33,905 bases of DNA from Enterobacterales bacterium (GTDB lineage: Bacteria; Pseudomonadota; Gammaproteobacteria; Enterobacterales; GCA-2746155). How positions within the stretch are numbered: the stretch's first letter is position 1; each line of letters begins with the position of its first letter. Of this stretch, positions 1,171 through 26,971 are shown piece after piece. The notes beneath the pieces were generated by a model. It did no database searches. It had not been told where the DNA came from and saw only the letters and a program-made list of their open reading frames with translations. The position numbers were made by a program, and so were the translations under genes. The stretch covers positions 1 through 33,905 of the forward strand of contig JBLHLI010000002.1 of NCBI GenBank assembly GCA_047618765.1, given 5' to 3'.

Positions 1171-1203
1171 TTTAAGGCTGGCTTAAGTTACAAGGTTTAC
1201 ATT
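1171..1203 (+). promoter_or_regulatory. PmrA/BasR-type box plus -10, upstream of fumC-corA
   Basis: TTTAAG-gctgg-CTTAAG (1171-1187), then 10 nt, then TACATT (1198-1203). The site is 60 nt upstream of the fumC ATG. Confidence 0.5.
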
Positions 1204-1262
1204 AATTTGAAAATAGTAGCGGGAAGTTAGGCAGTAATACAGATCATTAAGAGCCACTCTCT

Positions 1263-2690
1263 ATGAAAAAAAGCAGTCTGCAAGATTTGCGTATAGAAAC
1301 CGATAGCCTCGGTGAGATTGACGTTCCTGAGAATCGCTATTGGGGCGCGCAGACGCAGCGTTCGCTTAATCACTTTGCTATTTCTCTAGAGCATTTTCGT
1401 TGGCGGCAGCCATTAATACGCGCATTGGGGATAGTGAAAAAAGCCGCTGCTCAAAGTAATTTATTATTAGGATTACTAACAGAAGATGTGGCTAACCCCA
1501 TAATCTTAGCCGCCAAAGAAGTGATTAACGGTGATTTATACGAGCACTTTCCATTGGGTGTATTCCAAACGGGTTCTGGCACACATACCAATATGAATCT
1601 GAATGAAGTCATCGCCAATCGCGCCAATGAATTGTTGGGTTATCCTCTCGGCGTAAAAATACCTGTTCACCCGAATGATCATGTCAACTTAGGGCAGTCA
1701 TCCAACGATGTGTTTCCTAGCGCCATGAATATTGCCGTATTGGAAACCTTAGAAAATCAATTGTTGCCTGCATTAATACAATTAAAGCAAAGCGTTACTA
1801 AAAAAGTGGAGGAATACCAACATGTTATAAAAGTAGGGCGCACGCATTTGCAGGATGCAGCACCGTTAACTCTGGGGCAGGAAATGTCCGGCTGGGCTGC
1901 CCAATTGGATTTTTCGCTAAATGCGATTAATCAGCATAAATGTAAAGCATATCCCTTGGCGATTGGAGGCACTGCCGTCGGTACTGGGTTAAATGCCCAC
2001 CCTCAATTTGCAGATAAAGTGGTTGAGTTAATAAAAATAGAAACATCGATACCGTTTACCAATAGTGAGAATAAATTTTTTTCCCTTTCCTGCCACGATC
2101 CTTTAGTTGAAATGTCAGCAGGCTTGAGAACCCTCGCAATGACCTTATTAAAAATTGCCAATGATATTCGCTGGCTAGCCAGTGGGCCACGTTGCGGTAT
2201 CGGAGAATTACTCTTGCCACAAAATGAACCGGGTTCATCCATTATGCCCGGAAAAGTGAATCCGACACAGTGTGAAGCCTTGAGCATGGTCTGCGTACAA
2301 GTATTTGGTAATGATGCCACGGTAGCATTTGCAAACAGTCAGGGCAGTTTTCAACTCAACACCTACAAACCCGTTATTGTGCATAACGTATTAGAAAGTA
2401 TCGAATTACTTGCAGATGCTATCACTAGTTTTGATCATTATTGCGTACAAGGCATATTACCGAATACAGCTCGCATACAAGATAATCTGAATAAGAATTT
2501 GATGTTGGCGACCGCTCTCAATTCTCATATTGGTTATGATAAGGCGGCAGAGGTTGCAAAACATGCTTGCCAAAAAAATCTCACATTAAAAACTGCTTGT
2601 ATCGATTTAGGTGCTGCGACAGAGGAGCAATTTGATCAATGGATGGATGTCAATGAAATGATTCACTCCAGTGAAAAGCCAACAAAATAA
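1263..2690 (+). CDS. fumC: Class II fumarate hydratase
   Basis: 475-aa ORF with [17 protein letters not shown] and the [18 protein letters not shown]-loop. The C-terminus is collinear with FumC rather than aspartase. Confidence 0.9.
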
Positions 2691-2705
2691 TATCAGGTTT
2701 TATCT

Positions 2706-3773
2706 ATGAAATTATTTGCCAAACAGTATCACGCGCCAGGCACATTGCCAGGAACGCTCAATATTATCGAAGACGATCATATCAGTCTGACTCTGTTTGA
2801 TTATAACGAAAATCAATTGATCGAAAAACCAGACATTAGTGTGAAGGAATGCCGTAGTTTTATCGACGACACCAATACGACTTGGATTCATATTCAGGGA
2901 GCGCCAACATTGGCTATGCTCAATATGTTGTCGGGTAGTTTTGGTTTGCACGATCTTTATCTGGAGGACATTGTCAATGTTGGTCAACGCCCTAAGGTTG
3001 AAATCCTCGACAATCAAATATTTCTTATTTTGAGCCTACCGGTCGTCAATGAAAATGCCATTACTATGGAGCAGGTATCCCTGTTTTTAAGCGAGCGAAC
3101 GGTCATTTCATTTTGTACTGGCAGCGTAATCCCTTTTGAATTAGTTATCGAGCGTTTACGAAAATCCAAAGGAAAAATTCGTAAACGTCAGGCCGATTAT
3201 CTATTCTACACCTTGATCGATACCGTTATTGATCACGGTTATCCATTGCTCGAATATTTTTCAGAAAAAACACAGAGTTTGGAAGATGCTTTAATGGATT
3301 CTCCCGATCAATCGGTCATGCAGTCCATTCATCAATTACGTCGGGAACTGTTGTTGTCACGGCGCTGCTTATGGCCGCAGCGGGAATTAATTAATCAACT
3401 AATACGTAATGACGAAAATGTGTTGATCCATGAGAAAACAAACATTTATTTTCGAGATTGTTATGATCATATTATTACTGTGGTTGAATTCTTGGAAACC
3501 TATCACGAAATCAGCAATGGAATGTTAGAGGTTTATCTGTCCAATGTCAGTCATCGTCTTAATGAAGTCATGCGATTATTAACGGTTATTGCGACCTTGT
3601 TTATACCACCCACTTTTATAGTGGGCGTTTATGGAATGAATTTTGATCATAAGGTAAGCCCTTTGAATATGCCAGAATTGGGCTGGCCCTATGGGTATCT
3701 TTTTGTTTGGGGAATTATACTCAGCATGATGGCTGGCATGTTATTTTATTTTTATAAGAAGAAGTGGTTTTAG
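2706..3773 (+). CDS. corA: CorA-family Mg2+/Co2+ channel
   Basis: 355-aa ORF with two C-terminal TM helices and the YGMNF (GMN) signature. It starts 15 nt after the fumC stop, so it is probably co-transcribed. Confidence 0.9.
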   Translation: MKLFAKQYHAPGTLPGTLNIIEDDHISLTLFDYNENQLIEKPDISVKECRSFIDDTNTTWIHIQGAPTLAMLNMLSGSFGLHDLYLEDIVNVGQRPKVEILDNQIFLILSLPVVNENAITMEQVSLFLSERTVISFCTGSVIPFELVIERLRKSKGKIRKRQADYLFYTLIDTVIDHGYPLLEYFSEKTQSLEDALMDSPDQSVMQSIHQLRRELLLSRRCLWPQRELINQLIRNDENVLIHEKTNIYFRDCYDHIITVVEFLETYHEISNGMLEVYLSNVSHRLNEVMRLLTVIATLFIPPTFIVGVYGMNFDHKVSPLNMPELGWPYGYLFVWGIILSMMAGMLFYFYKKKWF

Positions 3774-4233
3774 TATGGGGGTTAAAGCCCTGAGCGAGAA
3801 AAATAACGTGATGTGATAGGGGCTGTAAGGGATTTAATAAGCTGCAAGGAGGTAGTGATACCAAAGGAAGCCACGACTTTTTATTGATAGTGTACTGATA
3901 CATATTGTGCGTCGGGGTCATTATCATAAACCCGTATTTTTTGACGATCAATATTATGTGACCTAGATACATTTTCTTAAGGTGGGTTGCAGTCACTATG
4001 GGATTGTAATTCATAGCTATTGTTTAATGGTTAACGGGAACACCAATCGGTAGTGAAAAATTTAAAGGAAAAGTTGAGGCGACATCGGAAAAAGACGTTG
4101 GTTTGGCAAGAAAATGGCCACCAAGAAATATTTTATAGTTCTGCTCCCTGTAAGGAATCGTGCTGGACGGCTCAATGCTGCGGTTATGCTTAAATCTAAG
4201 CAGTAATTTTCCCTATTTCTTCTTCTTATTATT

Positions 4234-5046
4234 ATGGTGAAAAATATGAAACCTATGTCTTCTGATCATAGTTATGCACGAATTAATGTTGTTGTATTAG
4301 GAAGAAGTTTCGATAAAAACTTAACCGACTCTGTGCTAGTAGAGGAGGGTGGCGCGATAAAGTATAGGGATGCATTCCAGCTTAAGCTTAAATCCGGTGA
4401 AGCTTGGTTGTTTGATTATGGCATTTTAGTTTGCTGGGATGTGACCGAGAGTGATCGCCAAAAATTGCGCGCTGATATATCTAGGCTGGTTATTGATTCA
4501 ATAGACGGCCAGGTTTCTGAGCAGTTTTCATTTGAGGTCAATACAGGAAAAGAATTTCGAATTCATAATGATCTCGTGGTGTTGCCTAATGACAATAAAA
4601 TGATTCGTTTAGCGCTAAGTCATGCTTTTGCGCAATCAAGCAAACTGTCCTTCTTTGAAGATAAGGCACAGACGGTTATTCAGCAGAATAGCCACTTATC
4701 AAAATTGTTGGCGAGCACAGGAAAAATTCCTTTATCTAAACTTAAGCTTGCGAAATTAAGAGGGGTGCTATTTGACACTAGCAGTGATATTAGCCTGCAT
4801 TTTAATTTGCTCGATACACCGGAGTTTTTTTGGAATTATCCTGAGTTAGAAGCGTATTATTTACCCTTATCTAAGTATTTGGATTTACAGCCACGAATAC
4901 AAATACTTAACCAAAAACTATCGACTATTCATGAGTTGCTCAATATGTTGGCAGCTGAGCAACACCACAAACATGCCGCGTTTTTGGAGTGGATTATCAT
5001 TGTATTGATCGCTATTGATATAGCGGTGTATTTTTTTCCGAAATAG
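4234..5046 (+). CDS. RMD1/DUF155 (YagE-type) family protein with a C-terminal TM helix
   Basis: 270-aa ORF with a soluble domain (...AWLFDYGILVCWDV...) followed by one hydrophobic C-terminal helix (WIIIVLIAIDIAVYFF). The family was assigned by recall, not by search. Confidence 0.55.
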   Translation: MVKNMKPMSSDHSYARINVVVLGRSFDKNLTDSVLVEEGGAIKYRDAFQLKLKSGEAWLFDYGILVCWDVTESDRQKLRADISRLVIDSIDGQVSEQFSFEVNTGKEFRIHNDLVVLPNDNKMIRLALSHAFAQSSKLSFFEDKAQTVIQQNSHLSKLLASTGKIPLSKLKLAKLRGVLFDTSSDISLHFNLLDTPEFFWNYPELEAYYLPLSKYLDLQPRIQILNQKLSTIHELLNMLAAEQHHKHAAFLEWIIIVLIAIDIAVYFFPK

Positions 5047-5302
5047 GGGGTCTATGAATTTACAAAAAGGAATAAAGGGTTAATTTTTTAGAATATAAAA
5101 AGTTAGATTTTTTGCATAAAAAGCTTGTGTATCGCTAAAAAAAGAATAAAATCCCGCCACTTCTTGAACATAGCCAATCCTAGTACATCGCTCACCGCGA
5201 CAAGGCAATAGAGTAACTATTCAAGAGTTGATTTTACTGATTAAGCGAGTATTTATGCCGCTAAAACCAGTGTTTTATTGACTTATTTTTTGCTCGGAGG
5301 TT

Positions 5303-6502
5303 ATGTTCTACATGATAACTATTGAATCTGCTAATCTATCTATATCTACCCATTCCCCATCGGAAAACGATTTAATTCATTCATTGGTCGCGCTACATGG
5401 CACGCCATTAATGATGCTAGATTGTAATATTATACGGCTACAGTATCAGGCTCTAGCCAATGCTTTGCCGAATGTTGAATTACATTTTGCTTTAAAACCA
5501 ATGCCACATGCTTCGGTTGTAAAAACCTTGCTAGATGAGGGGGCGAGCTTTGACTTGGCGACGAATGGTGAAATAGATCTAGTTAGAAGTGCAGGTGTTC
5601 CAGCCTATAAAACGATTCATTCTCATCCCATTAAGCGTGATTCTGATATTCGTTATGCCTTAGAATATGGTTGTAATGTTTTTGTTGTGGATAACGTGAA
5701 TGAACTAGAAAAATTTATACCCTATAAAGATGAAGTGGAAATTTTAATTCGGCTAAGCTTTAGAAATGTTGATGCGTATTCTGATTTGTCCAAAAAATTT
5801 GGTTGTAATCCTGAGCATGCAATTCCTTTAATTCGCCGCGCGATCTTATTGGGTATTCGGATTAAAGGTTTATCTTTTCATGTGGGTTCGCAAACCACAG
5901 ACCCCAATATTTATGTGCATGCAATTGATACCAGTAGAAAAGTATTTAAAGAGGTTGCTCAGCTCGGCTTGCCAGCGTTAAGCACCTTAGATATTGGCGG
6001 TGGCTTTCCTGTAGAGTATATGGATAGCGTGATGCCAATTGATAGTTTTTGTGCACCGCTAAGAGACGCCTTAAGTAAATTCCCTGAAACGGTTAAAATC
6101 ATTGCTGAACCCGGTCGCTTTATAGTTGCGCCTGCAGCGACATCTGTGGCATCTATTATGGGACAAGCGGAGCGTGACGGAAAAACTTGGTATTACCTTG
6201 ATGATGGTATTTATGGTTCTTTTGGTGGGATATTGTTTGACCACGGAAATTACCCTATTGATGCAATGAAGTGGCAGGGAGAGCGTTTTCCATCAGTTCT
6301 AGCAGGCCCTACTTGCGATAGTATCGATGTCATTTCTGAAGATATTTCCTTGCCTAAATTAATCAATGGTGACTTGATTATAGGTCGTGTGATGGGCGCT
6401 TATACCAGTGCGACAGCTACTGAATTTAATTTCTTTAAAAAAGCGGAAATTGTTATATTAAACGAAGCGTTAGCATTTGATACTGTATCTGATTTAGCAT
6501 GA
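5303..6502 (+). CDS. Fold-type III PLP-dependent ornithine/lysine (or DAP-like) decarboxylase
   Basis: Motifs HFALKP (PLP lysine), HVGSQ, GGGFP, EPGR and GPTCDS. GGAGG at 5296-5300 fits the in-frame ATG at 5312 better than the one at 5303. Confidence 0.85.
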   Translation: MFYMITIESANLSISTHSPSENDLIHSLVALHGTPLMMLDCNIIRLQYQALANALPNVELHFALKPMPHASVVKTLLDEGASFDLATNGEIDLVRSAGVPAYKTIHSHPIKRDSDIRYALEYGCNVFVVDNVNELEKFIPYKDEVEILIRLSFRNVDAYSDLSKKFGCNPEHAIPLIRRAILLGIRIKGLSFHVGSQTTDPNIYVHAIDTSRKVFKEVAQLGLPALSTLDIGGGFPVEYMDSVMPIDSFCAPLRDALSKFPETVKIIAEPGRFIVAPAATSVASIMGQAERDGKTWYYLDDGIYGSFGGILFDHGNYPIDAMKWQGERFPSVLAGPTCDSIDVISEDISLPKLINGDLIIGRVMGAYTSATATEFNFFKKAEIVILNEALAFDTVSDLA

Positions 6503-6994: not shown

Positions 6995-7234
6995 TTATTT
7001 TTTGCTATGGCTACCATCACACATGGGTTGTGATTCGGTCTGCTTGCAACCACAAAAATAGACCGTTTCGGTAGCATCGCTAACGTATCTTACGGGTAGA
7101 AATTGGGTTCCCGCATGTGAACCATCACAGAAAGGCTGTGCTTTACTTTGGCCACAAGCACACCAGTGATAAGTTTTTCCGGCCTCAACCTCTTCCGTAA
7201 AAGGTGAATTGGATACTCTAATAGCATGCTTCAT
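6995..7234 (-). CDS. CDGSH-type iron-sulfur domain protein (paralog 1)
   Basis: 79 aa with two C-x-C-x8-C-DGSH motifs (CACGQSKAQPFCDGSH, CGCKQTESQPMCDGSH). It is clearly paralogous along its whole length to the ORF at 8055-8294 (percent identity not computed). Confidence 0.85.
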   Translation of the reverse strand: MKHAIRVSNSPFTEEVEAGKTYHWCACGQSKAQPFCDGSHAGTQFLPVRYVSDATETVYFCGCKQTESQPMCDGSHSKK

Positions 7235-7274
7235 AATGTTATACCTTTATTTTTTAAATTTTGAATAGTTGATG

Positions 7275-7298
7275 AAAAAACCCCCGCATAAAGTGGGG
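7275..7298 (-). terminator. Hairpin plus T-run (minus strand) between the hsp20 relic and CDGSH-1
   Basis: AAAAAA-CCCCCGC-ataaa-GTGGGG on the plus strand. It is the diverged twin of the terminator at 8332-8354. Confidence 0.45.
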
Positions 7299-7310
7299 TG
7301 GTAGGCTAAA

Positions 7311-7390
7311 TTAAGCCGCTATTTCAATATTAATGCATTTCTTTCTTTTTCAAAATGGCGTTCATCTTCAATGGTCAATAGGGATTATTT
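7311..7390 (-). pseudogene. 3'-terminal relic of a second hsp20 copy
   Basis: ttaagccgctatttc... aligns with the 3' end of hsp20 (ttaagccgcaatttc... at 8366). It translates to ..LLTIEDERHFEKE.., compared with ..MLTVHLKKSEKE... Most of the gene is deleted. Confidence 0.4.
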
Positions 7391-7419
7391 TAATGAGGAA
7401 AACTTAAACGTTGCTTAAG
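7387..7419 (-). promoter_or_regulatory. PmrA-type box plus -10 kept by the hsp20 relic. It may now serve CDGSH-1.
   Basis: Minus strand: CTTAAG-caacg-TTTAAG, 10 nt, TAAAAT (7392-7387). Confidence 0.45.
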
Positions 7420-7459
7420 CTAAAAGGCCATAAAATTTTTTTGGAGTTATTTACTAATA

Positions 7460-8054: not shown

Positions 8055-8294
8055 TTACCATTTATTATGACTACCATCACACATAGGAGCGTATGTAGAT
8101 TGTTTGCAGCCACAAAAATAAATCGTTTCCTTAGCATCGCTAATATATTCCATTGGTAGAGATTGAGTTCCCACATGTGAGCCATCACAGAAAGGTTGTT
8201 TTTGGCTTTGACCACAGGCACACCAGTGGTAAGTTTTTCCGGCTTCGACTTCTTCTGTAAAAGGTGAGTCGAATACGCTAGGGAAATTGTTCAT
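8055..8294 (-). CDS. CDGSH-type iron-sulfur domain protein (paralog 2)
   Basis: Two CDGSH motifs. The ATG at 8294 (MNNFPSVFDSPFTEE...) gives 79 aa, the same length as paralog 1 and collinear with it. The ORF-track start at 8345 would run into the hsp20 terminator. Confidence 0.85.
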   Translation of the reverse strand: MNNFPSVFDSPFTEEVEAGKTYHWCACGQSQKQPFCDGSHVGTQSLPMEYISDAKETIYFCGCKQSTYAPMCDGSHNKW

Positions 8295-8331
8295 TATTCT
8301 ATGCCTATTGATACTGCAATTAGCTGATAGT

Positions 8332-8354
8332 AAAAAGCCCCGCATAAAGCGGGG
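8332..8354 (-). terminator. Rho-independent terminator after hsp20
   Basis: Minus strand: CCCCGC-tttat-GCGGGG followed by CTTTTT. Confidence 0.6.
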
Positions 8355-8365
8355 AGGTCGGCTAA

Positions 8366-8815
8366 TTAAGCCGCAATTTCTACACGGATATTTTTAGGGG
8401 CTTCTTTTTCAGATTTTTTCAAATGAACAGTTAGCATGCCTTCTTTAAATTCCGCTTTAATATTCGCCTCTTTGATATTGTCGGGTAAGCTAAAGCTGCG
8501 AGTAAAATGGCCATAAAAACGCTCAATGCGATGAAATTTCTTGCCATCTTTACTTTCTTGTTCGAACCGTCGTTCACCATCAATAGTCAGCACACCATTG
8601 CTAATATTGACATTAACATCCTCTTTTTTAACTTCAGGTAACTCTGCTTTGATTAAAAATTCGTGATCTGACTCAATAATATCCACCGCGGGTGACCATT
8701 CAGTCGATGCTGGCTCTTGACGAGTGGCAATATTACGGTTTGATTGATGAAAACGAGGGTGGTAATGGAACATTTCTTCAATGTCTTTTAACGGTTTCCA
8801 AGTGGTTAGGTTCAT
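8366..8815 (-). CDS. Small heat-shock protein, Hsp20/alpha-crystallin family
   Basis: Alpha-crystallin domain (...FLIKAELPEVKKEDVNVNISNGVLTIDGER...FTRSFSLP...). The ATG at 8815 has GAGGA 9 nt upstream. The ORF-track start at 8866 is probably too long. Confidence 0.9.
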   Translation of the reverse strand: MNLTTWKPLKDIEEMFHYHPRFHQSNRNIATRQEPASTEWSPAVDIIESDHEFLIKAELPEVKKEDVNVNISNGVLTIDGERRFEQESKDGKKFHRIERFYGHFTRSFSLPDNIKEANIKAEFKEGMLTVHLKKSEKEAPKNIRVEIAA

Positions 8816-8876
8816 GGTTAACAGTCCTCTAAAAGTGTAAGGTTTAAGTGATTGGCTAATTGCCAAGTTGGACTAA

Positions 8877-8909
8877 ACTATAAGGCAGTAAGCTTAAACT
8901 TAACTTAAG
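8877..8909 (-). promoter_or_regulatory. PmrA-type box plus -10 upstream of hsp20
   Basis: Minus strand: CTTAAG-ttaag-TTTAAG, 10 nt, TATAGT (8882-8877). Confidence 0.55.
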
Positions 8910-9019
8910 TTCTAGAATATTTACAAGCTATGTTTACATGTCATATCGAAAAATAAAAAATCAGTAAGGGAGGATTGGTGTCGATACAGTTACTTAAATA
9001 CTGTGTCTTATGTAAGGAT

Positions 9020-10648: not shown

Positions 10649-10741
10649 GACATCTGTCGCACTAATATTATTTAATGCGTGCTGATAAGGGTTTCCACCG
10701 TAGGCCGTTGGTGAATGATTGTCAATGTGTCATGTCAATTG

Positions 10742-15578: not shown

Positions 15579-15676
15579 CTATGTAATTAAAAACTGTTAT
15601 ATCAAGGGATAGGAGCCATTAATGCCAGCCAAGCCTGTGGCTCAATTAAAATAATCCTGTTAATAATAAATAATCG

Positions 15677-16036: not shown

Positions 16037-16148
16037 TAAAAATAAAAAAATACTGTAAAAAATAGCGTGTGTTCATGGTTAACCCCCGTGGTTTTACATT
16101 ACTGTTGAAAAAGCAATATTTCTGCTTAAAAATAGGTACAATGTTAGT

Positions 16149-16181
16149 ACTGTAAAATTCATAGCTTAAATTAAAGTTACT
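16149..16181 (-). promoter_or_regulatory. Weak PmrA-type box (good proximal half only) plus -10, upstream of the secreted/DUF502 operon
   Basis: Minus strand: AGTAAC-tttaa-TTTAAG, 10 nt, TACAGT (16154-16149). Confidence 0.3.
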
Positions 16182-16269
16182 CTATTAATAATTGTTATCA
16201 GGCTAGCTATCGATAAGTTTTTTAGACATACTCATAACCATAATAGGATTGTTGGATTCTATCTTTAAG

Positions 16270-17388: not shown

Positions 17389-17763
17389 GTTGAATCCTCT
17401 GATTGGGTAAGCGGTGATTTTTTGCTAACATTTTTTGTGTTAAATAATGCCAACGGTTACTAATCTAATGGTCAGTAGTTGAGGTATCTATATTGCCGTC
17501 AAGGTCATCAAAAAATTCAACGAGGGCATACTGAAGAGACTGATTATAATCATTAGCGTCAATATATCTTTTAATATATCTACCATTAAATCCTATAATA
17601 TCAGTATCAGTATCAGTTAGAATACTTAAATCAACCTTAAGGCTACTGTCTTGATTAAAGTTTTTTATCTACTATGTAGAAAATAGCTTATGGTTAGAGA
17701 TCTTTATTCGATCACCATTTATAGGCTGAAAACACTGACTACAATAAATTATATCCTTAGTAA

Positions 17764-17796
17764 AAACTAACTATTCAAGGTTAAGCAGGGTTTAAG
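17764..17796 (-). promoter_or_regulatory. PmrA-type box plus -10-like hexamer in a decayed spacer upstream of the OYE gene
   Basis: Minus strand: CTTAAA-ccctg-CTTAAC, 10 nt, TAGTTT (17769-17764). The nearest downstream reading frame (17465-17668) has no start codon. Confidence 0.3.
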
Positions 17797-18116
17797 TTAA
17801 GGCTGACAAAATGCACCTGGTTACTAAAAACCATCATTATTTAAACAGTGGCGAACAGAGGTTGATGATGTTAGTTGTATGTAAAATTTCATGTGTTGAC
17901 AATATATTTTTAAAATATTAACAATACGAGATTATATTTATGTGTCTAACTTACACAAAGTGCCAAGAGCCACTAGTAACGTTAAAAATTAATTAAGAGG
18001 GAAATAATTAACACCATGAAAAATAATATTTTTTTATTAACAACTGTAACGGCAATCAGTTTATTTGCTGCAATTCCCACTGTAGAGAAATCCAAGTTTA
18101 GCTCTGTCTATGTTAA

Positions 18117-19746
18117 CCTTATAGTTGCATAAAAAATGTATGGGAAGCCGACTTCAGCCTAAAAAAATAGGGCGTTTGTAAGTTTTTTGGCTCCATCGGT
18201 AATTAACCTCTGGTTAAGTTCAAGATTCGAACATTTTTTCAAAAAATATTAAATTTTCTATCTATAATTAAAGAAGTGGCTTGCTATTTTTATAGAAAGA
18301 ATTCACCACAAGAACAAAAAAAATAGCAAGCCACCACTATGAAGTCTAGCAAATATAGTATCAATCGTAAAACACACGCTGTCCAAAATCTGCGCTTTGA
18401 AGATCAAAAGCTCACCTCTTTTTCGGGGTTAACTGTTTTTCAAACACTCTTTGATCATTTGTCTCTTAAAAATTCGTTACACGCTTGTTTCAAACATCAG
18501 GTCGTAAGCCCAATATTTGGTGAGGCAACGATCGTACTCTTACTTGTTGTCCATTTATTATTGGGCTATTGAGAGCTGCGTCATCTGCGGTTTTATCAGG
18601 ATGATCCAATGGTAAAACGAGTCCTTGGCTTAACGAAACTGCCGGATGTCGCGACCATTAGCCGCAGCCTGTCAAGCATGGACGGTGAGAGCACCAGCAA
18701 CTTGCAGCGCTTTTGGGCAACATGGTATTCAATCGACTAAAAAAATTGTCTTTAGCTTGAGTGACTCTAGATTTTGATGGCTCAGTTTTAGGAACGGGAC
18801 GTTATGCTGAAGGAACAGCCGTGGGTTTCAATAAATTAAAGAAAGGGCCGGGAAGTTCTTACCACTTGTATTGTACCGTTGCTCAAACTGGACAGGTCTT
18901 AAATGTTTTGCATCGCTCAGGAAATGTTCACGATTATAATGGTGCACAAGATTTTATCGTAAGCTGTATAGAACAAGTAAGTTTAGCGCTACCGGGAGTG
19001 ATTGTTGAAGTGCGCATGGACAGTGCATTTTTTAGCGACGCCCTAATAAATACATTAGAAGACAACGCAGTGGAATATACGATTAGCGTTCCATTTGAGC
19101 GCATGTTGGTTTTGAAAGGCTGTGTCGAAAAACGCCGCAAGTGGCATTGTCTTGATGAAAAATGTGATTTTTTCGAAATGCGATGGAAGCCTAAGTCATG
19201 GAAAATAAAACGTCGGTTTATTGTTGTACGTCCAGCGACAAAAATACAACAAAAACAACCGATTCAACTTGATCTGTTCATCCCCTATGACTATCAGTGG
19301 GCGTTCAAAATTGTATTAACGAACAAGCAGCTCACTCCAGGAAAAGCGATTGCGTAACACAACGGTCGAGGTAGTCAGGAAAGTATTTTTGCCGAATTAA
19401 AGTCGTGTAACCAGATGGACTATATGACTACAAGAACCTGGGAGCGAAACAAGGTTTATATGCTGTTCTCAATACTTGCGCACAACGTATCAAGGGAACT
19501 CCAAATGATAAGCGCACTACCGGAGCGATCAACAGAAGAAAAACGTCCCGCTTTGTGGAAGTTTAAGAAATTAGGCACTCTGCGAAAGGAAATAATACAA
19601 CGAGCTGGCCGAATTATCCGGCCGCAAGGTAAATTAGTCTTATCTATGGCAACAAATGAAGCTGTAAAAGGTGAGATGTTGCATTATTTAGAAAAAATCC
19701 GTAGAGCGTCCTAGCCATAGCTCGTCTTTTTTATACAACGTTAGGG
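18117..19746 (+). mobile_element. IS1380-family-like insertion sequence (~1.63 kb), degenerate copy
   Basis: The terminal inverted repeats match at 16 of 20 positions (CCTTATAGTTGCATAAAAAA at 18117; reverse complement of the right end CCCTAACGTTGTATAAAAAA). The right boundary is fixed by comparison with the second copy at 33779. No matching target duplication is visible (GTTAA versus TTGAT). Confidence 0.8.
18339..19714 (+). pseudogene. DDE transposase (IS1380-like) inactivated by several in-frame stops and a frameshift
   Basis: N-terminus ..FEDQKLTSFSGLTVFQ.., LDFDGS, VRMDSAF and HNGRGSQESIFAELK motifs. There are in-frame TGA codons at 18570 and 18758, a TAA at 19355, and a frame change around 18700-18725. 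Confidence 0.75.
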
Positions 19747-20063
19747 TTGATATCGTCATACAGGGCTTTACCATTTTTTGCTCCTCGGTAACTGCTCCTT
19801 CGTTACTCTACTAAGTTGCATCCATACAACGATGCAAAACTGGCATGCATACCTTCCATAGTAATAACCCGGTATCCCGTCAGAGCCTGAAACCACTAGA
19901 TTTCGGATAAGAAAAAAAACGCTTTCCGAAATGATGAAGTCTTGTTTTTGTTTTCATGTCTCTTGCTCACCATACTCGCCATACCGGACTCGATCCGGTA
20001 CTGCTTGTCCACCATAAATATGGTTTATTACCAAGCTAGTATAAAGTTAACGGGGCAGCAGTG

Positions 20064-20116
20064 CGATGAAATACAAAAACCTTAAGGCTAGCTTAAGTTA
20101 TTAGCGTTAAGTTACT
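20064..20116 (+). repeat. 53-bp promoter-module repeat, copy 1
   Basis: cgatgaaatacaaaaaccttaaggctagcttaagttattagcgttaagttact, compared with 21051-21103 (7 mismatches in 53). Confidence 0.8.
20081..20113 (+). promoter_or_regulatory. PmrA-type box plus -10-like hexamer upstream of the PepSY gene
   Basis: CTTAAG-gctag-CTTAAG (20081-20097), 10 nt, TAAGTT (20108-20113). Confidence 0.45.
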
Positions 20117-20239
20117 ATTATTACGTTCTTAGTATTTTTAAAAATATTAATTATGTGAGCCAAGTTGCACTTAATTAATATTTAAAATGATACATTAAGT
20201 GCAAATTTAAATTTATAATCAACTAATAGGCCATTATGT

Positions 20240-20500
20240 ATGAAAACATTATCGACATTAATTTTGACTGCTTGTTTATTCAGCTCATTTGTTAGTGCTG
20301 AACCCATAAGCGAAGATGAGGTTATTCAAAAAGCAATAAGCTATTACCCTGGAGAAGTTTTAGATATTTATCAAGAAACTAAGGAGGGTGTGGAAGTTTG
20401 GCGGGTAACTATTGAAAATGTGAAGGGTGAGGTTCGGGATTTTTATTACTCTATAGAAACTGGAGAGCTAGTTGATAGTGAAATAAAAGTTACTGGTTAA
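20240..20500 (+). CDS. Small secreted PepSY-domain protein
   Basis: 86 aa with a signal peptide (MKTLSTLILTACLFSSFVSA) followed by a PepSY-like ..AISYYPGEVLDIYQETKEGVEVWRVTI...YYSIETGELV. Confidence 0.7.
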   Translation: MKTLSTLILTACLFSSFVSAEPISEDEVIQKAISYYPGEVLDIYQETKEGVEVWRVTIENVKGEVRDFYYSIETGELVDSEIKVTG

Positions 20501-20530
20501 GTTGTAAAAAAATCTATTGTTAATTAAAAA

Positions 20531-20566
20531 ACTTTGGTGGGCTGATATTTTCCCTGCCAAAGTTTT
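20531..20566 (+). terminator. Possible terminator after the PepSY gene
   Basis: ACTTTGGtGGG...CCCtgCCAAAGT stem followed by TTT. The loop is long. Confidence 0.35.
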
Positions 20567-20607
20567 AGCGATTTAGCTGTTCTCAAGAGATATATAAAGG
20601 ATGTGGA

Positions 20608-20934
20608 TTAAACTGTATTACAAGACAAATGTCTCACCGTGTCCGTTACCCCAGATCCTTGGATCTTGAGGCGAGTTCATTGTCCTTGAATCACCCCTTT
20701 GGAGATTTTTACATTCAGGGCATGTAGTTTTGTTAATGCATGACCCTTTTCATTTACGTAAGGTTTCTGCAGTGTGAGGCTACGATTTGTGCCATTAATT
20801 GAATCCTCCAGATTTATCATTATTTTTGCATGATGGTATTTTCGTGCCAACTTTCGATACGCGGGTTTGATTTCTTCTTGCTTTGCGTCACGTTCAACAC
20901 CAAGAATTTTATAATAATATTTATATCCTATCCG
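20608..20934 (-). pseudogene. cbpA: Relic of a cbpA/dnaJ-type J-domain co-chaperone gene
   Basis: The minus-strand frame reads ..YYYKILGVERDAKQEEIKPAYRKLARKYH(HAK).. The J-domain has lost its HPD motif. Then comes ..LNVKISKGVIQGQ*TRLKIQGSG.., matching CbpA ..[21 protein letters not shown]... There is no start codon, plus internal deletions and a stop. Confidence 0.5.
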
Positions 20935-21011
20935 TTATTTCTCTGCCTTTTTCTCGATGATAACGAGCGATCATTTAATAAAACAAACAACACTGTTGTC
21001 ACAGAGGGGTG

Positions 21012-21044
21012 AAAGTATCATTTCTTTCTTAAATTACGCTTAAA
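21012..21044 (-). promoter_or_regulatory. PmrA-type box plus -10 upstream of the cbpA relic
   Basis: Minus strand: TTTAAG-cgtaa-TTTAAG, 10 nt, TACTTT (21017-21012). Confidence 0.45.
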
Positions 21045-21050
21045 GTTCAA

Positions 21051-21126
21051 CGATGAAATATAAAAACATTAAGGCTAGCTTAAGTTATTGGAGTTAAGCT
21101 ACTGGTATTAAGTTATTAGGTTTAAG
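21051..21126 (+). repeat. 53-bp promoter-module repeat, copy 2, extended by a phased array of TTAAG half-sites
   Basis: TTAAG starts at 21069, 21080, 21094, 21108 and 21122, giving spacings of 11, 14, 14 and 14 nt. Confidence 0.75.
21068..21100 (+). promoter_or_regulatory. PmrA-type box plus -10-like hexamer upstream of acnA
   Basis: ATTAAG-gctag-CTTAAG (21068-21084), 10 nt, TAAGCT (21095-21100). A separate consensus TTGACA at 21132-21137 with CATAAT at 21157-21162 (19-nt spacer) is an alternative promoter. Confidence 0.45.
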
Positions 21127-21199
21127 TTAATTTGACAATAACAACGAAAATAAGACCATAATTTTTACTGGAAAATAATTCATTAAGGGCCGATTATCT

Positions 21200-23914
21200 A
21201 TGGATAACAATACATTAAGTTCTCTACATGTAGGTGGTAAAAAGTACTCTATTTTTCAGCTCAATAGATCGCCTTTATTGAAAAACAGTAAAACCTTACC
21301 TTTTTGTTTGAAAATTTTACTCGAAAATCTTTTGCGGCATGAAAAAGCTGGGCATGTTTCATCAGCAATGATTCAAGCCTTGTGTCAATGGTCGCCAGGG
21401 GAGGTTAGCGCAAAGGACATAGCTTTTACGCCTGCACGTGTTGTGTTGCAGGATTTCACTGGTGTGCCTGCCATTGTTGATTTAGCTGCAATGCGTGATG
21501 CCATGGTACAGCTAGGCGGTAATCCTGATCTGATCAACCCATTAGTCCCTGTGGATTTGGTGGTGGATCATTCTGTGATGGTGGATTACTACGGCACAAA
21601 CGATGCTATTGAAAAGAATATTGGGCGGGAGTTTTCCCGTAATCGGGAACGTTATGCTTTTTTACGCTGGGGGCAACAGGCATTCCGTCATTTTCGTGTG
21701 GTACCGCCCGGTACCGGTATTGTTCATCAGGTTAACCTTGAATACTTGGCGCAAGTGGTTACTACAGCGACGGTTGATGGGAAAGTAATGGCCTATCCCG
21801 ATACCTTAGTAGGTACCGATAGTCACACGACAATGATTAATGGTTTGGGTGTGTTGGGTTGGGGGGTTGGCGGTATTGAAGCAGAAGCCGCTATGCTAGG
21901 GCAGCCGATGACAATGTTAATACCTAAAGTAGTGGGGGTTGAATTAACGGGTCGTCTTTCTGAGGGTACTACGGCCACAGACTTAGTGCTCACCATCACA
22001 GAGTTATTACGGCAGCATGGCGTTGTGGGTAAATTTGTGGAATTTTGGGGTGAGGGTCTACACGGTCTCCATTTGGCTGACAGAGCGACTATTGCCAATA
22101 TGGCACCGGAGTATGGCGCGACTATCGGTATTTTCCCCATTGATCACGAAACACTGAATTACCTGAGGCTCACGGGACGCAGTGAAGAGCAAATAACGCT
22201 AGTAGAGGCTTACGCAAAGGTTCAGGGCTTATGGCGGGATGATCTTAACCCCGCAGTTTATGATGAATATTTACGTGTTAGCTTAGCAGAGATCGAACCT
22301 AGTGTAGCGGGGCCTAAACGCCCCCAAGACCGTGTGCCATTAGCATTAGTTAAACAAAGCTTTCAAACAATGATGGGGGATGAAAGCCTTAAAGCTAATA
22401 TTCCTGTTATCAATCACGATTCAAATTCTCTTCAAGAAGACACGCCAGTTTTTTCACCTTCATCACCATTGGATAAACATACCTTGGTCCACGGTGATAT
22501 TGTGATTGCCGCCATCACTTCCTGTACCAATACCTCCAACCCTGCCGTTATGCTGGCAGCGGGTCTGGTGGCGAAAAAAGCCTGCCAACTCGGATTATTA
22601 TCAAAGCCTTGGGTCAAAACCTCTCTTGCGCCCGGCTCACAAGTTGTGCCTGCTTATTTAAAACAAGCGGGTTTAACCGAATACCTGAATACCTTGGGGT
22701 TTAATCTGGTGGGGTTTGGCTGTACCACGTGTATTGGTAACTCGGGTCCTTTACACGCCGATATCCAACAGGCTATTCATCAAGACGATTTAACGGTTGC
22801 CTCAGTGTTATCGGGTAATCGTAACTTTGAAGGGCGTATTCACCCTGAAGTTAAAGCCAATTATCTTGCATCGCCGCCTTTGGTCGTTGCTTACGCTCTT
22901 GCGGGAACCGTCAATATCGATTTGACTCAAGATGCACTCGGCCATGATCCACAAGGTAATCCTGTATTGTTAAAAGATATTTGGCCATCACAAGAAGAGG
23001 TCAATAGTCTCATCGATCAAGTTATTAAAGCAGATTTATTTACACGCTATTATGCCGATGTATTTAAAGGATCGACACACTGGCAGCAATTAAGCGTTGC
23101 CAACGACAAAAATTACACTTGGCCAGCGTCAAGCTATATTAAAAAACCGACTTTTTTTAATGGCATGGCCACATTACCAAGTGAACAAAAACGTATTATC
23201 AAGGCCCGGTGTCTGGTTAAAGTAGGCAACTCGATTACCACCGACCATATATCGCCGGCAGGTAGTATTCATCCACAGAGTCCGGCAGGAATCTATTTGC
23301 AACAACAGGGCGTTACGGTTAATAATTTTAATAGTCTAGGTTCTCGGCGTGGTAATCATGAAGTGATGATGCGCGGTACGTTTGCGAACCCGCGTTTGGA
23401 AAATTCACTGGCCTTAACAAAAGAGCCGAATAAAGTGGGCGGCTATACTTGTTATTTTCCTGACAATAGCGTGATGCCTATTTACGATGCGGCCATTCAG
23501 TATGCCAAGGCTAAAACTGCTCTGATCATTTTGGCAGGGAAGGAATACGGAACCGGTTCTAGTCGTGATTGGGCCGCAAAAGGCACTCAATTATTGGGCG
23601 TAAAAGCCGTGATCGCAGAAAGTTTTGAGCGTATTCATCGTTCGAACCTGGTGGGTTTCGGTGTATTGCCCCTTGTATTTATGGCGGGAGAAAATGCCGA
23701 TTCTTTGGGGTTAACCGGCGAAGAGGTGTTTGATTTTGAAAAAGCCATTACTCGTCATGATAAAACCATAAAGGTAACTGCAACGATTAAAGGGCGACCT
23801 CAAAAAATAATTAATGCAACGAATAGGATTGATACAGAAAGTGAGTGGGATTATTATCTTAACGGTAGTATTTTACATACAGTTTTGAGGAAGTTGGCTA
23901 ATGGAAAACAATAA
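21200..23914 (+). CDS. acnA: Aconitate hydratase A
   Basis: 904-aa monomeric AcnA/IRP-type aconitase with Fe-S cluster ligand motifs [10 protein letters not shown] and [10 protein letters not shown]. Confidence 0.92.
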
Positions 23915-23972
23915 TTCATTTCCACCTATGAATGATTTTAATTTTTTTTTTACAAAAAAGGAAGGAGTTAAC

Positions 23973-24446
23973 ATGTTAGAGAGAGAAATCGATATTGGTA
24001 TTAACAAGACACATCGTATTGCCGTTGCCAACGGCCTTAAGGCCTTATTGGCCGATACTTATACGCTTTATTTACAAACACATTATTTTCATTGGAACGT
24101 CACCGGGCCATTTTTTAGGGATCTACATTTATTATTTGAAGAGCAATATACCGAGATGGCATTAGCCGTTGACGAAATAGCAGAACGTATACGAACATTG
24201 GGTGTGTATGCCCCAGGGACTTATAAAGCCTTCACGGCATTAAGTAGTATAGCTGAAGTTGAAGACGTACCGAAGGCCAATGACATGGTCGTTGTACTGA
24301 TAAAAAACCATGAAAAGATGGTTAAAACCTGTCGTAAAGTATTTAAAATTGCAGAAAAGGCTGCTGACGAATCATCCATTACACTGATTTCAGATAGAAT
24401 GCGTGTACATGAAAGAGTGGTGTGGATGCTTAGATCACGTCAATAA
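23973..24446 (+). CDS. dps: Dps-family DNA-protecting ferritin-like protein
   Basis: ..[31 protein letters not shown].. motif. AGGAG at 23963-23967 precedes the ATG at 23973. The ORF-track start at 23901 overlaps acnA and is unlikely. Confidence 0.88.
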
Positions 24447-25160
24447 TTCTGGATGTTTTTTAGCGATTGTTGTGATAAATAGTGTGCTATATCACCAAGC
24501 AAATAATTGATTATAAGAGTATATATTCGTGTAAAATTCACGTAAACAACTATAACTTCGCTGAAGTTATAGTTTCGATGAGCGTTACTGTGGAGTCGAC
24601 GCAACGTTTAACCGCATAGCGTAAATCTAGGGGGCTTGCCCCCGAGCTGGATAGCTAATATAAAAGCACTTACGCCGGCTAAAACAGAATTTGAAAGTAA
24701 AGCCATAAGTACATTAATGCCAACATTACCCCACAAAATTGTCGTTAATAAAAAATTGGCGTCTTGGCGTCTTGGCGCATGGCTAATACTTTCCGAGCTG
24801 CAGGGCTGTGTTCACCGGCAACCTCGAGTTCTAAACGGTTGACACTAAAAAAAGCCAAATTAAGCCCTGAAAACATGGCTGATTGAGTATACAAAAACCT
24901 ATAGCTATCCAAGTGATCCTCATAAAAATATTACTTTAAGGTTGTCATGGGATTTTCAAACAGCAACCCTAATAAGTGAGATGTTGACGTAAAGACCATT
25001 TATTATAATGTAAGCTGAATAATGCCCCCACCTTAAGCGGAAAAATCATACAAGCAGAAAACTTTCTAAAAAACTAGCTGTGAAATTAACGTACTAATCG
25101 AGAGTTATTATATTGTTTATAGTGAACACTTTCCTGTAACCATCAGCGCATTCACTAACA

Positions 25161-25294
25161 TACTACCGGGTCACTTGAAAAGAAGACACTCCATTTCAGT
25201 TGCGCTGTGAATATGTCCCTATTCACTCAGCTTCGGCATCCATGCCTCAGATGGCCTGAAACGGAGTGTATTCTTTTTAAGCACCCTGCTAGTA
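25161..25294 (-). mobile_element. MITE copy B (inverted relative to copy A)
   Basis: The reverse complement aligns end to end with 774-907. It has the same TA-flanked termini. Confidence 0.75.
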
Positions 25295-25382
25295 AGTTCA
25301 TCAATTTATTCAATCACATGAAAAAATCATTTATCAAAAATAAGCCATGTACCAATTTATGTATAGATCTTACAAAAAGGAA

Positions 25383-25415
25383 CTTAAATTAACATTAAGG
25401 CTTTATTTTTATCAT
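25383..25415 (+). promoter_or_regulatory. PmrA-type box plus -10, distal htpX promoter
   Basis: CTTAAA-ttaac-ATTAAG (25383-25399), 10 nt, TATCAT (25410-25415). Confidence 0.45.
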
Positions 25416-25447
25416 TTAAGCTGAATTTAAGTTTCCACCTTTATGAT
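25415..25447 (+). promoter_or_regulatory. PmrA-type box plus -10, proximal htpX promoter
   Basis: TTTAAG-ctgaa-TTTAAG (25415-25431), 10 nt, TATGAT (25442-25447). Confidence 0.55.
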
Positions 25448-25605
25448 ACCTTTATCGTAATAGAGTATAAAAACTCGTCTTTACATGATTTAGGAGCATC
25501 ACAGGCGGAGAATCACCGAAAGGAGAGAAACTTTAGTCATCAAGCATCACATAGATAATGATTAACAATCATTAGAAACTACGACATCTTATCTCAGGCA
25601 GCGCC

Positions 25606-26484
25606 ATGAAACGAGTCTTTCTTTTTTTAGCCACCAATTTTGCCATTGTACTTGTGCTATCACTTAGCATGCGCGTGCTTGGGGTGGAGCCATATCTACA
25701 AGCTAATGGCCTTAACTTAAATGCCTTGCTAATTTTTGCGGCTGTGATCGGTTTTGGTGGTTCGTTAATTTCTCTTGCGCTCTCTAAATGGATGGCCAAG
25801 ATGTCAGTGGGCGCGCAAGTGATATCAAAGCCTAAGAATAATCAAGAGCAATGGCTCGTCGCCACTATCGTGCAGCAGGCCCGATCGGCCGGTATTGGTA
25901 CACCAGAAGTCGCCATCTGGGAATCGCCAGAAATTAACGCATTTGCAACGGGGATGAATAAAAACAACGCGCTAGTTGCTGTATCAACAGGCTTGCTTAC
26001 CTCTATGACGCGAGAAGAAGCGGAGGCCGTACTGGCCCATGAAATTTCGCATATTGCCAATGGTGATATGGTGACCTTGGCGCTGATTCAAGGCGTGGTA
26101 AACACCTTTGTTTTATTTTTGTCTCGCGTCATTGGCCAAACGGTAGATAGGGTCGTGTTTCGGAATGAAAATGGCCATGGGCCAGCGTTTTGGGTGACGG
26201 TCATTGTTGCAGAAATTGTACTGGGGATATTGGCATCCATCATCGTTATGTGGTTTTCTCGACAAAGGGAATTTAGAGCCGATGCAGGCGGTGCGCGATT
26301 AACCTCGTCTAGTGCCATGATCAGTGCATTGGAGCGTCTACGTCGTGGACACGTGGCTTCGTTACCCGATAAGCTCGCCGCCTTTGGCATCAGCGGGCAT
26401 CGGAAAAATGGATTGCGGCGATTATTTATGACCCATCCACCATTAGAAGAACGCATTGACGCTTTGCGCAATCACATAAGGTAG
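25606..26484 (+). CDS. htpX: Membrane zinc metalloprotease HtpX (M48 family)
   Basis: 292 aa with TM helices and the [11 protein letters not shown] HExxH motif. The C-terminus ..THPPLEERI.. is typical of HtpX. Confidence 0.9.
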
Positions 26485-26511
26485 AGAGTTGGATAGCGGC
26501 ATAGTAACACC

Positions 26512-26838
26512 GTGAGTACAGGCGCTCACCAACAAGCATTATTCCCGGCTAAAAATATTGAGTCCTATCTCATACAACAGCCTCTGGAATCTTTTACCTA
26601 TAAAGATAAAGGTTCTCTAATATCACTGAGTCAAGATGACTCTATTGGTACATTAATGGGACGACTGATGGGACGACTGATGGGTAACATTACACGGCAT
26701 GGCTTTATTGCAAAAATGCTTGACAGGGCACACTATCGAAGCCATCAGTTATCGATTGACGGTTTTTATAAAACAATAGTATTAATGCTAAGTGATTTTC
26801 TGGGACGTTCGACAGGGGATAAAACCAAGTTGCATTAA
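26512..26838 (+). pseudogene. ndh: C-terminal fragment of a type II NADH dehydrogenase (ndh)
   Basis: ..FTYKDKGSLISL...GTLMGRLMG...AKMLDRAHYRSHQL..DGFYK...KTKLH* matches the NDH-2 C-terminus. No Rossmann-fold N-terminal part exists, because htpX ends 27 nt upstream. It has a GTG start and an internal 12-bp tandem duplication at 26656-26679. Confidence 0.5.
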
Positions 26839-26938
26839 ATCCAGATTATGCATTGGAATCACGAAAGCAGAAGTTGGCCACTTATCGTCATTAGAGAATA
26901 TGGTATCGATGCAGCAGCGGAGAGTATTATCCAGCCAT

Positions 26939-26971
26939 CTTAAGCTTTGTTTAAGGGTCGATATTTATAAT
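26939..26971 (+). promoter_or_regulatory. PmrA-type box plus consensus -10 upstream of the psiE-like gene
   Basis: CTTAAG-ctttg-TTTAAG (26939-26955), 10 nt, TATAAT (26966-26971). Confidence 0.6.

Follow-up and report, generated by a model that had tools for sequence, protein, structure and literature searches.

PmrA/QseB-type systems and the locus under study

This work concerns a tandem promoter box, and the response regulator (RR) that probably binds it, in the first 33,905 nucleotides (nt) of contig JBLHLI010000002.1 of an Enterobacterales bacterium (assembly GCA_047618765.1). The whole of this 34-kb stretch, which seems to make up the entire contig, is hereafter called the window, and the counts of sites and genes given below for this organism cover the window. 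A first-pass annotation, made from the letters alone, had marked thirteen promoters here as PmrA/BasR-box promoters of stress genes and had attributed them to an RR encoded among them. Relatives were compared as regulator-centred loci (L002–L031) from genomes, metagenome-assembled genomes (MAGs) and metagenomes, and their taxa are given as the labels of the source MAGs or genomes. The operon in question comprises three genes:

11784–12452, minus strand: response regulator, OmpR/PhoB family, PmrA/QseB clade, 222 amino acids (aa), the proposed binder of the boxes
10742–11773, minus strand: membrane histidine kinase (HK), 343 aa, with a QseC/PmrB-like catalytic core (176 bits for the NCBIfam QseC model and 151 bits for PmrB, neither of which reaches its cut-off)
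9020–10648, minus strand: cytoplasmic hybrid kinase, 542 aa, third gene of the operon, with the Pfam domain order GAF-HisKA-HATPase-REC

The closest described system is PmrA/BasR. The pmra-box consists of two xTTAAy hexamers with a five-nucleotide separation and overlaps the −35 element of the pbgP, ugd and pmrCAB promoters (PMC10570014). For Klebsiella PmrA, the class II-like activation complex on pbgP has been solved (PMC10570014, PMC4660055), and the roles of the contact residues T187, N188, V192, H195, N196 and R210 are described (PMC4660055, PMC10570014). In E. coli K-12, three promoters were read directly: arnB (CTTAAGgttaaGTTAAT-N10-TAAAAT), pmrR (CTTAAGgttcaCTTAAT-N10-CATACT) and eptA (CTTAAGgttggCTTAAT-N10-GAGCAT). 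All three have a −10-like hexamer at N10, and the window boxes accordingly have the geometry of promoters activated by BasR. The window system shares with PmrA/BasR of Escherichia, Salmonella and Klebsiella the same box, the same N10 spacing, a boxed operon of its own and a near-identical recognition helix (SNTIEVHIHGIRKK against TNTLEVHIHNLREK); the activation mechanism is likely the same (PMC10570014). It differs from them in that its regulator scores below the model cut-off and has Gly in place of N196, its membrane kinase has a loop of only about seven residues, and its operon contains an additional GAF hybrid kinase. Its predicted targets are also different, being chaperone, protease, tricarboxylic acid (TCA)-enzyme, Dps and antiporter genes, with no boxed gene for lipopolysaccharide (LPS) modification.

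QseBC (FirRS) of Pasteurellaceae and Enterobacteriaceae is similarly close. QseB of Aggregatibacter binds CTTAA-N6-CTTAA around the −35 region of the promoter of its own operon, ygiW-qseBC, and this site is identical to the PmrA consensus (PMC5053249). In some relatives of the window, a small secreted-protein gene precedes the regulator (PepSY in L027, a small open reading frame (ORF) in L004), as ygiW does in Aggregatibacter. Unlike QseC, the window kinase has no periplasmic domain; the system has no link to catecholamine or iron sensing, its regulon is another one and its regulator scores below the QseB cut-off.

For Legionella and Coxiella PmrA, Zusman et al. reportedly described in 2007 a motif in which a tandem repeat containing TTAA lies at a constant distance from the −10 element. 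PmrAB of Legionella pneumophila and Coxiella burnetii resembles the window system in having a PmrA-type regulator, a tandem TTAA repeat and a regulon rewired in a lineage-specific way. The Legionella PmrA regulon comprises about 40 effector genes (PMC6989116). The targets in these species are Icm/Dot effectors, whereas no dot/icm or effector-like gene was found in the window, and the half-site is TTAAT there and TTAAG here.

In E. coli, htpX and degP belong to the Cpx and RpoH regulons, hsp20/ibp to that of RpoH, and dps, acnA, fumC and cbpA to those of RpoS and SoxRS. The gene content of these regulons overlaps with that of the window; the window, however, has a single PmrA/QseB-type RR with its own box instead of sigma factors or CpxR (GTAAA-N5-GTAAA). 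Finally, the pho-box of PhoB is likewise composed of 11-bp-phased tandem repeats that replace the −35 element and contact sigma region 4 (PMC10570014). Its half-site sequence is different, and it lies about 4 bp further upstream than the pmra-box (PMC10570014).

Enrichment and geometry of the box

The exact box YTTAAG-N5-YTTAAG was found in the window 10 times at nine loci, one of which is palindromic. Whole-window dinucleotide shuffles give an expectation of 0.05, and a first-order Markov model of the noncoding DNA (8,435 nt, 35.5% GC, 2000 simulations) gives 0.011; none of the 2000 noncoding simulations reached the count of 10. The looser pattern TTAA-N7-TTAA-N11-TAnnnT has 13 matches, against 0.16 expected in one control and 0.051 in the noncoding model. 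Every match of the box is intergenic and so lies in the noncoding 25% of the window.

The distance between the box and the hexamer is strict. TAnnnT stands at exactly N10 downstream of eight of the nine exact boxes (P ~2e-11), whereas every other spacer collects at most three such hexamers, with a background TAnnnT frequency of 3.5%. In 12 of 14 sites, a T precedes the hexamer. When −35 hexamers were searched 16–18 nt from the −10 of 12 promoters, no promoter had one better than 3 of 6, so these promoters should be weak without an activator. Both the missing −35 and the strict N10 phasing agree with the view that a direct repeat stands in place of the −35 element. The window boxes have the layout by which a pmra-box is defined (two xTTAAy direct-repeat hexamers, a 5-nt spacer, overlap with or replacement of the −35 element); they also match the QseB site and the layout of the E. 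coli promoters, and their naming as PmrA/BasR boxes is upheld in this respect. A single half-site with N10 and TAnnnT was found 12 times against 1.5 expected; the second TTAA half-site is missing in two of these 12 (16149–16170 and 25700–25721), which equals the chance expectation.

All 13 site readings of the first-pass annotation were confirmed as written. The sites read as promoters are as follows:

12513–12545, minus strand: promoter of the RR-HK-hybrid HK operon, TTTAAGcgccaTTTAAG-N10-TAGGAT, 60 nt before the ATG
12593–12625, plus strand: divergent promoter of the CPA2 cation/proton antiporter gene, ATTAAGggtgaTTTAAT-N10-TATAGT
1171–1203, plus strand: fumC-corA promoter, TTTAAGgctggCTTAAG-N10-TACATT
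8877–8909, minus strand: hsp20 promoter, CTTAAGttaagTTTAAG-N10-TATAGT, with CDGSH-2 beyond a terminator-like hairpin
7387–7419, minus strand: promoter of the hsp20 relic and CDGSH-1, a paralogous copy, CTTAAGcaacgTTTAAG-N10-TAAAAT
20081–20113, plus strand: PepSY promoter, CTTAAGgctagCTTAAG-N10-TAAGTT, in one copy of a 69-nt duplicated segment
21068–21100, plus strand: acnA-dps promoter, ATTAAGgctagCTTAAG-N10-TAAGCT, in the other copy of the 69-nt segment
21012–21044, minus strand: promoter of the cbpA (J-domain) relic, TTTAAGcgtaaTTTAAG-N10-TACTTT, back-to-back with the acnA box
25415–25447, plus strand: htpX promoter, TTTAAGctgaaTTTAAG-N10-TATGAT
25367–25399, minus strand: divergent site facing the CNNM/DUF21 relic, CTTAATgttaaTTTAAG-N10-TAAGAT, absent from the earlier list
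26939–26971, plus strand: psiE promoter, CTTAAGctttgTTTAAG-N10-TATAAT

In three intergenic regions (RR/CPA2, cbpA relic/acnA and CNNM relic/htpX), back-to-back boxes would serve divergent genes. A repeat search indicated that the flanks and spacers of the boxes are unrelated, with the exception of the PepSY and acnA promoters; these are two copies of one 69-nt duplication with 87% identity and hence are not independent sites. The long leaders were checked for RNA elements, and no Rfam family reached its gathering score anywhere in the window.

The regulator and its kinases

The regulator consists of Response_reg (PF00072) and Trans_reg_C (PF00486) domains, the combination that defines the OmpR/PhoB family, and aligns over its full length to many models and PDB members of this family. 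Its best NCBIfam model is PmrA (NF007928), with 238.6 bits against an equivalog cut-off of 330 bits, followed by QseB (NF007663), with 218.4 bits against 345 bits. The closest PDB entries are those of Klebsiella PmrA/BasR (4S04/4S05/8JO2, E=3e-50), the identity with E. coli BasR is 45%, and the orthologs in L002 and L003 are named QseB by NCBI. Among the DNA contacts of Klebsiella PmrA, N188, V192, H195 and R210 are identical in the regulator, T187 is replaced by S and N196 by G. Judged by these scores, the regulator is a member of the PmrA/QseB clade and an equivalog of neither PmrA nor QseB. The initial assignment to a BasR/QseB type holds as to the ranking of models and the nearest structure and fails at the level of equivalogs; because both scores are below the cut-offs, "PmrA/BasR" is better read as "PmrA/QseB clade".

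According to the hydropathy profile, the membrane kinase has two transmembrane (TM) segments joined by a loop of about seven residues (EHAWWQI), which leaves no room for a periplasmic sensor domain. The PmrB kinase has a periplasmic loop that senses Fe3+, Al3+ and acid pH; such a sensing loop, a mark of PmrAB systems, is lacking in the window kinase. The hydropathy profile of the hybrid kinase revealed no TM segment. With this architecture, the signal would more likely come from the membrane or the cytoplasm than from metals in the periplasm. The gene order RR-HK-hybrid HK recurs in L022, L023, L026 and L028.

Conservation of the box and covariation with the regulator

The closest genome, a Candidatus Endobugula sp. 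MAG (L002), shows 99% protein identity and about 95% DNA identity, and the next closest, a Cellvibrionaceae MAG (L003), shows 92% protein and about 82% DNA identity. An origin in the Legionellales, to which the GC content and the PmrA theme had pointed, was rejected in view of these two genomes. The regulator protein was also found on a metagenome contig of run SRR28416798. In L003, the promoters of the RR, CPA2 and hsp20 genes keep their half-sites and −10 hexamers, while the 5-nt spacers and the flanks have changed; the CPA2 promoter, for example, reads TTTAAGgttgaTTTAAT-N10-TATACT.

An ortholog box was accepted if it had at most one mismatch, the correct orientation, xAnnnT at N10 and a position upstream of the RR start, with a chance level of 0.033 per 250 nt. 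Such an autoregulatory box was found 60–127 nt upstream of the RR start in 10 of the 14 loci with the same recognition helix EVHIHG[IL]R. Among these 10, L009 and L027 share an identical box and may represent one organism. The source labels of the loci are Oleiphilus, Colwellia, Cellvibrionaceae, Bdellovibrionaceae and Alphaproteobacteria. L004 and L016 have an exact box before a small gene located upstream of the regulator gene. No box stands upstream of the regulator in more distant homologues whose helices differ (L007, L018).

A second type of helix goes with a second type of box. The EVHVSKLR regulators of L014, L015, L030 and L031 (H195S/G196K in Klebsiella numbering) are accompanied by CTTCAG-type half-sites. 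Exact CTTCAG-N5-yTTCAG boxes were detected twice in L014 (region 8477–9083) and five times in L015 (167–3701), most of them with TAnnnT at N10, and neither locus has a TTAAG-type box. One exact CTTCAG-type box (9560–9592) and one mixed box were found in L030, and a mixed box (~5740–5775) in L031. TTCAG-type boxes are absent from all other loci and from the window. Judging by this covariation, the EVHVSKLR/CTTCAG sub-clade looks like a natural specificity switch. The conservation of autoregulatory boxes in many taxa and the covariation of helix and half-site are the reasons for assigning the box to the window regulator. The original attribution of the boxes to the regulator at 11784–12452 is therefore supported at the sequence level, as is the claim that its operon has its own box, found at 12513–12545 and kept upstream of orthologs.

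On the contig of L030, a Rickettsiales-labelled MAG with an EVHVSK-type ortholog, Cas13a-like and mitochondrial-carrier-family (PF00153) proteins are encoded within 10 kb of the regulator (1–2689 and 17591–18577).

Boxed genes in relatives

The predicted regulons of relatives were compared with that of the window. In Oleiphilus L022 (75% identity), boxes precede the RR operon, hsp20, an htpX and CDGSH operon, a Cpn60 gene and three further genes, and hsp20 is boxed in L003 also. In L027 and L009, a gene for a YfdX-like secreted protein and degP-htpX are boxed; in L006, YflT-like and YfdX-like genes; in L016, nhaA; and in L014 and L015, a CBS-domain gene. The Colwellia-like loci L023, L026 and L028 have boxes before the RR and/or an extracytoplasmic function (ECF) sigma-factor gene. 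The latter box, CTTAAGctgag[CT]TTAAT-N10-TAAATT, is near-identical in L023 (13477–13509), L026 (20359–20391) and L028 (14813–14845). A boxed ECF sigma-factor gene near the regulator operon suggests a two-tier cascade, which has no counterpart in the window. The recurring theme of these predicted targets is protein-quality control together with cation/proton transport, and the membership varies by genome.

The Rhodospirillales MAG L027 contains three PmrA-like two-component systems within 20 kb (2769–5050, 10001–11673 and 15975–17983). One of them has a PepSY gene and a box-like site in front of it, and cross-talk on the shared motif is likely there.

Proposed mechanism and alternatives

The motif with its spacing, enrichment and conservation, the way in which it co-occurs and covaries with the regulator, and the missing −35 elements lead us to the following reading, to which we give a probability of about 0.78. 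The boxes would be sites for the phosphorylated regulator 11784–12452, an autoregulated PmrA/QseB-clade system that activates a clustered stress and proteostasis regulon. A head-to-tail dimer of the phosphorylated regulator would occupy the two 11-bp-phased YTTAAG half-sites. If the hexamer is placed at −12 to −7, the half-sites would lie at about −39 to −23 and stand in for the −35 element, and the dimer would bring sigma-70 RNA polymerase to the TAnnnT hexamer, which follows after 10 nt. Positive autoregulation would act on the regulator's own operon (the RR, the membrane kinase without a periplasmic domain and the cytoplasmic GAF hybrid kinase). The protective genes activated would be hsp20 (and CDGSH), htpX, fumC-corA, acnA-dps, the CPA2 antiporter gene, PepSY and psiE; the OYE (old yellow enzyme) reductase gene and the now-decayed cbpA and CNNM genes are probable further targets.

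Alternatively, the main protein bound to the boxes may be a different PmrA/QseB-type paralog from another part of the genome, and the regulator next to them a target or a cross-talk partner. PmrA and QseB share CTTAA-N6-CTTAA and cross-regulate in E. coli (PMC5053249), and the visible part of this genome is 34 kb. However, the type of box changes from locus to locus together with the recognition helix of the regulator next to it, and in most orthologous loci the box stands at a fixed distance upstream of the regulator's own gene. Many paralogs are also less likely in a seemingly gene-poor, decaying genome (25% noncoding, relics), and we consider this explanation unlikely.

Somewhat less probable still is a repressing or dual role, in which the bound regulator occludes the promoter. 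The box does overlap the polymerase-binding region, and RefSeq annotates E. coli BasR as a "dual regulator". However, promoters of which none in 12 has a −35 above 3 of 6 would be weak without an activator, and strict N10 phasing, the geometry of PmrA- and PhoB-activated promoters (PMC10570014), is needless for repression.

A non-regulatory motif is very improbable: although CTTAAG is palindromic, AT-rich DNA gives some half-site matches, the PepSY/acnA sites are a 69-nt duplication and other mobile-element-like repeats occur in the window, an AT-rich by-product is rejected by the noncoding-only control (0.01–0.05 against 10–13 observed), a dispersed repeat or mobile element is rejected because the only duplications that involve boxes are the PepSY/acnA one and the paralogous hsp20-CDGSH copy, with flanks and spacers otherwise unrelated and half-sites kept in relatives while spacers drift, and an alternative sigma-factor promoter is rejected because half-sites 10 and 21 nt from the hexamer misfit −35/−10 spacing and the hexamer is sigma-70-like TAnnnT, not of the sigma-32 type, with the T before it also misfitting RpoS, for which C is typical.

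Several points weigh against activation by the adjacent regulator. The regulator fails both the PmrA and the QseB equivalog cut-off, and it has a glycine at one of the two positions where Klebsiella PmrA has a base-specific asparagine. Two loci with the same helix, L008 and L026, have no box near the RR, and the covariation is not all-or-none, since L030 and L031 have mixed boxes of TTCAG with TTAAG or TTAAC. In L027 there is a precedent for paralogs, with box-like sites near more than one of its three PmrA-like systems. In L028, fumC and htpX lie near the RR and have no box at the thresholds used, nor do cbpA-cbpM nearby; regulon content is thus not uniform, and direct wiring of these genes is not universal. 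The comparison with relatives that the first-pass annotation had proposed speaks for hsp20, htpX and CDGSH, boxed in L022, and against fumC and htpX in L028. Finally, binding and regulation by this regulator are deduced, for this organism and clade, from sequence, as are the sign of regulation, the transcription start sites, the signal and the roles of both kinases.

Individual promoters and revised sites

Three further sites are uncertain or were rejected:

17609–17641, minus strand: uncertain candidate promoter of an OYE/NemA-like reductase gene, exact box CTTAAGgttgaTTTAAG-N10-GATACT
17764–17796, minus strand: uncertain weak site, CTTAAAccctgCTTAAC-N10-TAGTTT, with two mismatches, 375 nt from the OYE start
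16149–16181, minus strand: "DUF502 operon" site with the proximal half-site only, not distinguishable from chance

The box at 17625–17641 had been considered to lack a −10 element. It has GATACT at N10, which keeps the A and T positions of the hexamer, and it faces the OYE/NemA-like reductase gene (16270–17388), whose start is 220 nt away. The site at 16181 was dropped as a member of the regulon, being a lone half-site of a kind whose count is within the chance expectation. The first gene of the secreted/DUF502 operon downstream of it (15990–16148) seems to be frameshifted: the ATG opens a signal-peptide-like sequence (MNTRYFLQYFFIF...), a stop interrupts this frame, and a 119-aa ORF carries on in another one. 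This can be explained either by a pseudogene or by an assembly error.

The htpX promoter had been described as a tandem pair of sites. The distal site shares its DNA with the site at 25367–25399, where the minus-strand match is better, and it is better read as a divergent promoter that faces the CNNM relic. The CNNM/DUF21 gene is frameshifted in the window, and its N-terminus is intact in L002 (7504–7767). A 137-nt element that contains a 39-nt hairpin and looks like a miniature inverted-repeat transposable element (MITE) occurs in two inverted copies (774–910 and 25158–25294, 94% complementary). One of these copies lies between htpX and CNNM, immediately past the divergent box.

At the hsp20 promoters, both boxes and the hsp20 and CDGSH genes are confirmed, whereas the joint hsp20/CDGSH assignment needs a reservation. 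A terminator-like hairpin at 8354–8338 parts hsp20 from CDGSH-2, so the assignment of CDGSH to boxed promoters presumes read-through. The hsp20-CDGSH unit is duplicated (6995–7435 and 8055–8909, aligned repeat 7041–7309/8101–8365), and in copy 1 hsp20 is almost wholly deleted. The hairpin between the hsp20 position and the CDGSH gene is kept in both copies, and the hsp20 promoter of L003 is closer to copy 1 than to copy 2.

The cbpA relic is a remnant of the J-domain that has lost its HPD motif. The sites had been said to face the adjacent gene in every case; a gene start or relic indeed lies 58–220 nt downstream of them, with the exception of the weak 17796 site, at 375 nt.

Gene content and genome context

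Annotation with family models bears out the genes named as targets at first reading: fumC-corA, hsp20, two CDGSH genes, CPA2, PepSY, acnA-dps, htpX, psiE and the cbpA relic. Further genes of the window are a DUF155 gene, an ornithine/arginine decarboxylase-type gene, the DUF502 operon, the OYE reductase gene and transposase fragments. It had also been stated that the target set is not one of LPS modification, and no arn/pbgP, eptA/pmrC or ugd gene was found among the ORFs of the window or the boxed genes.

The stretch 27500–33593 holds a cyanophycin cluster (isoaspartyl dipeptidase-like protein, cyanophycinase and cyanophycin synthetase) and, after it, genes for a RimB-like (PF05618) protease and a 7TM-transglutaminase protein. 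With its start 36 nt after psiE, the cluster could be transcribed together with that gene from the boxed promoter. L023 and L026 also have RimB-like genes, directly upstream of the regulator.

When the window is compared with the 95%-identical Endobugula MAG contig (L002, 7504–8290), about 10 kb (14670–24676) are missing from the latter. The missing segment includes the 5′ end of a gene for a 260-aa protein (14137–14919), the rest of the DUF502 operon, OYE, insertion sequence (IS) fragments, PepSY, the cbpA relic, acnA-dps and part of the CNNM gene. In L002, the N-terminal CNNM fragment abuts the C-terminal part of the 260-aa protein. This gap looks like a lineage deletion that took several boxed genes.

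Fragmented DDE_Tnp_1_4 transposase ORFs are located at 18339–19746. The 127-nt IS end at 19620–19746 recurs inverted, with 97% complementarity, at the end of the contig (33779–33905), so the contig probably breaks in another IS copy. Since a quarter of the window is noncoding, several genes are decayed and IS and MITE-like repeats are present, the window suggests a genome in reductive evolution.

Implications

The box and its proposed mode of activation are textbook PmrA/QseB, and the rewiring of regulons by PmrA-type regulators is known from Legionella. The regulator clade is uncharacterised, its kinases differ from those of the known systems, and the stress regulon predicted in the window is unusual and densely grouped. 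A literature search found no characterised member of this regulator clade and nothing relevant on a two-component regulon of CDGSH, Hsp20 and HtpX. The output is unusual in that chaperone, protease, iron/oxidative-stress, TCA-isoenzyme and cation-transport genes would be placed under one autoregulated system.

The clade appears to be widespread, with at least 60% identity in the best 120 of 3990 database matches to the regulator. We tentatively propose, as a possibility and no firmer than that, that this PmrA/QseB-type clade (kinase without a periplasmic domain plus GAF hybrid kinase), with members among marine Gammaproteobacteria and MAGs that bear the labels Bdellovibrionaceae, Alphaproteobacteria and Rickettsiales, may serve as a stress and proteostasis master switch. 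In the organism of the window, taken to be an Endobugula-like symbiont with few genes and many pseudogenes, it would be wired directly to genes that E. coli splits among RpoS, RpoH, SoxRS and Cpx, and in Colwellia-like relatives it would act partly via the boxed ECF sigma gene; the helix change H195S/G196K would go with a specificity switch from TTAAG to TTCAG.

If control of these genes by one autoregulated system is confirmed, a function could be named for a regulator clade that is common in marine bacteria, and the window would illustrate the centralisation of a stress response under one response regulator in a decaying genome. The natural pair of covarying helices and half-sites would make the DNA-specificity rules of OmpR/PhoB regulators directly testable, and the specificity switch could become a worked example of the OmpR/PhoB recognition code.

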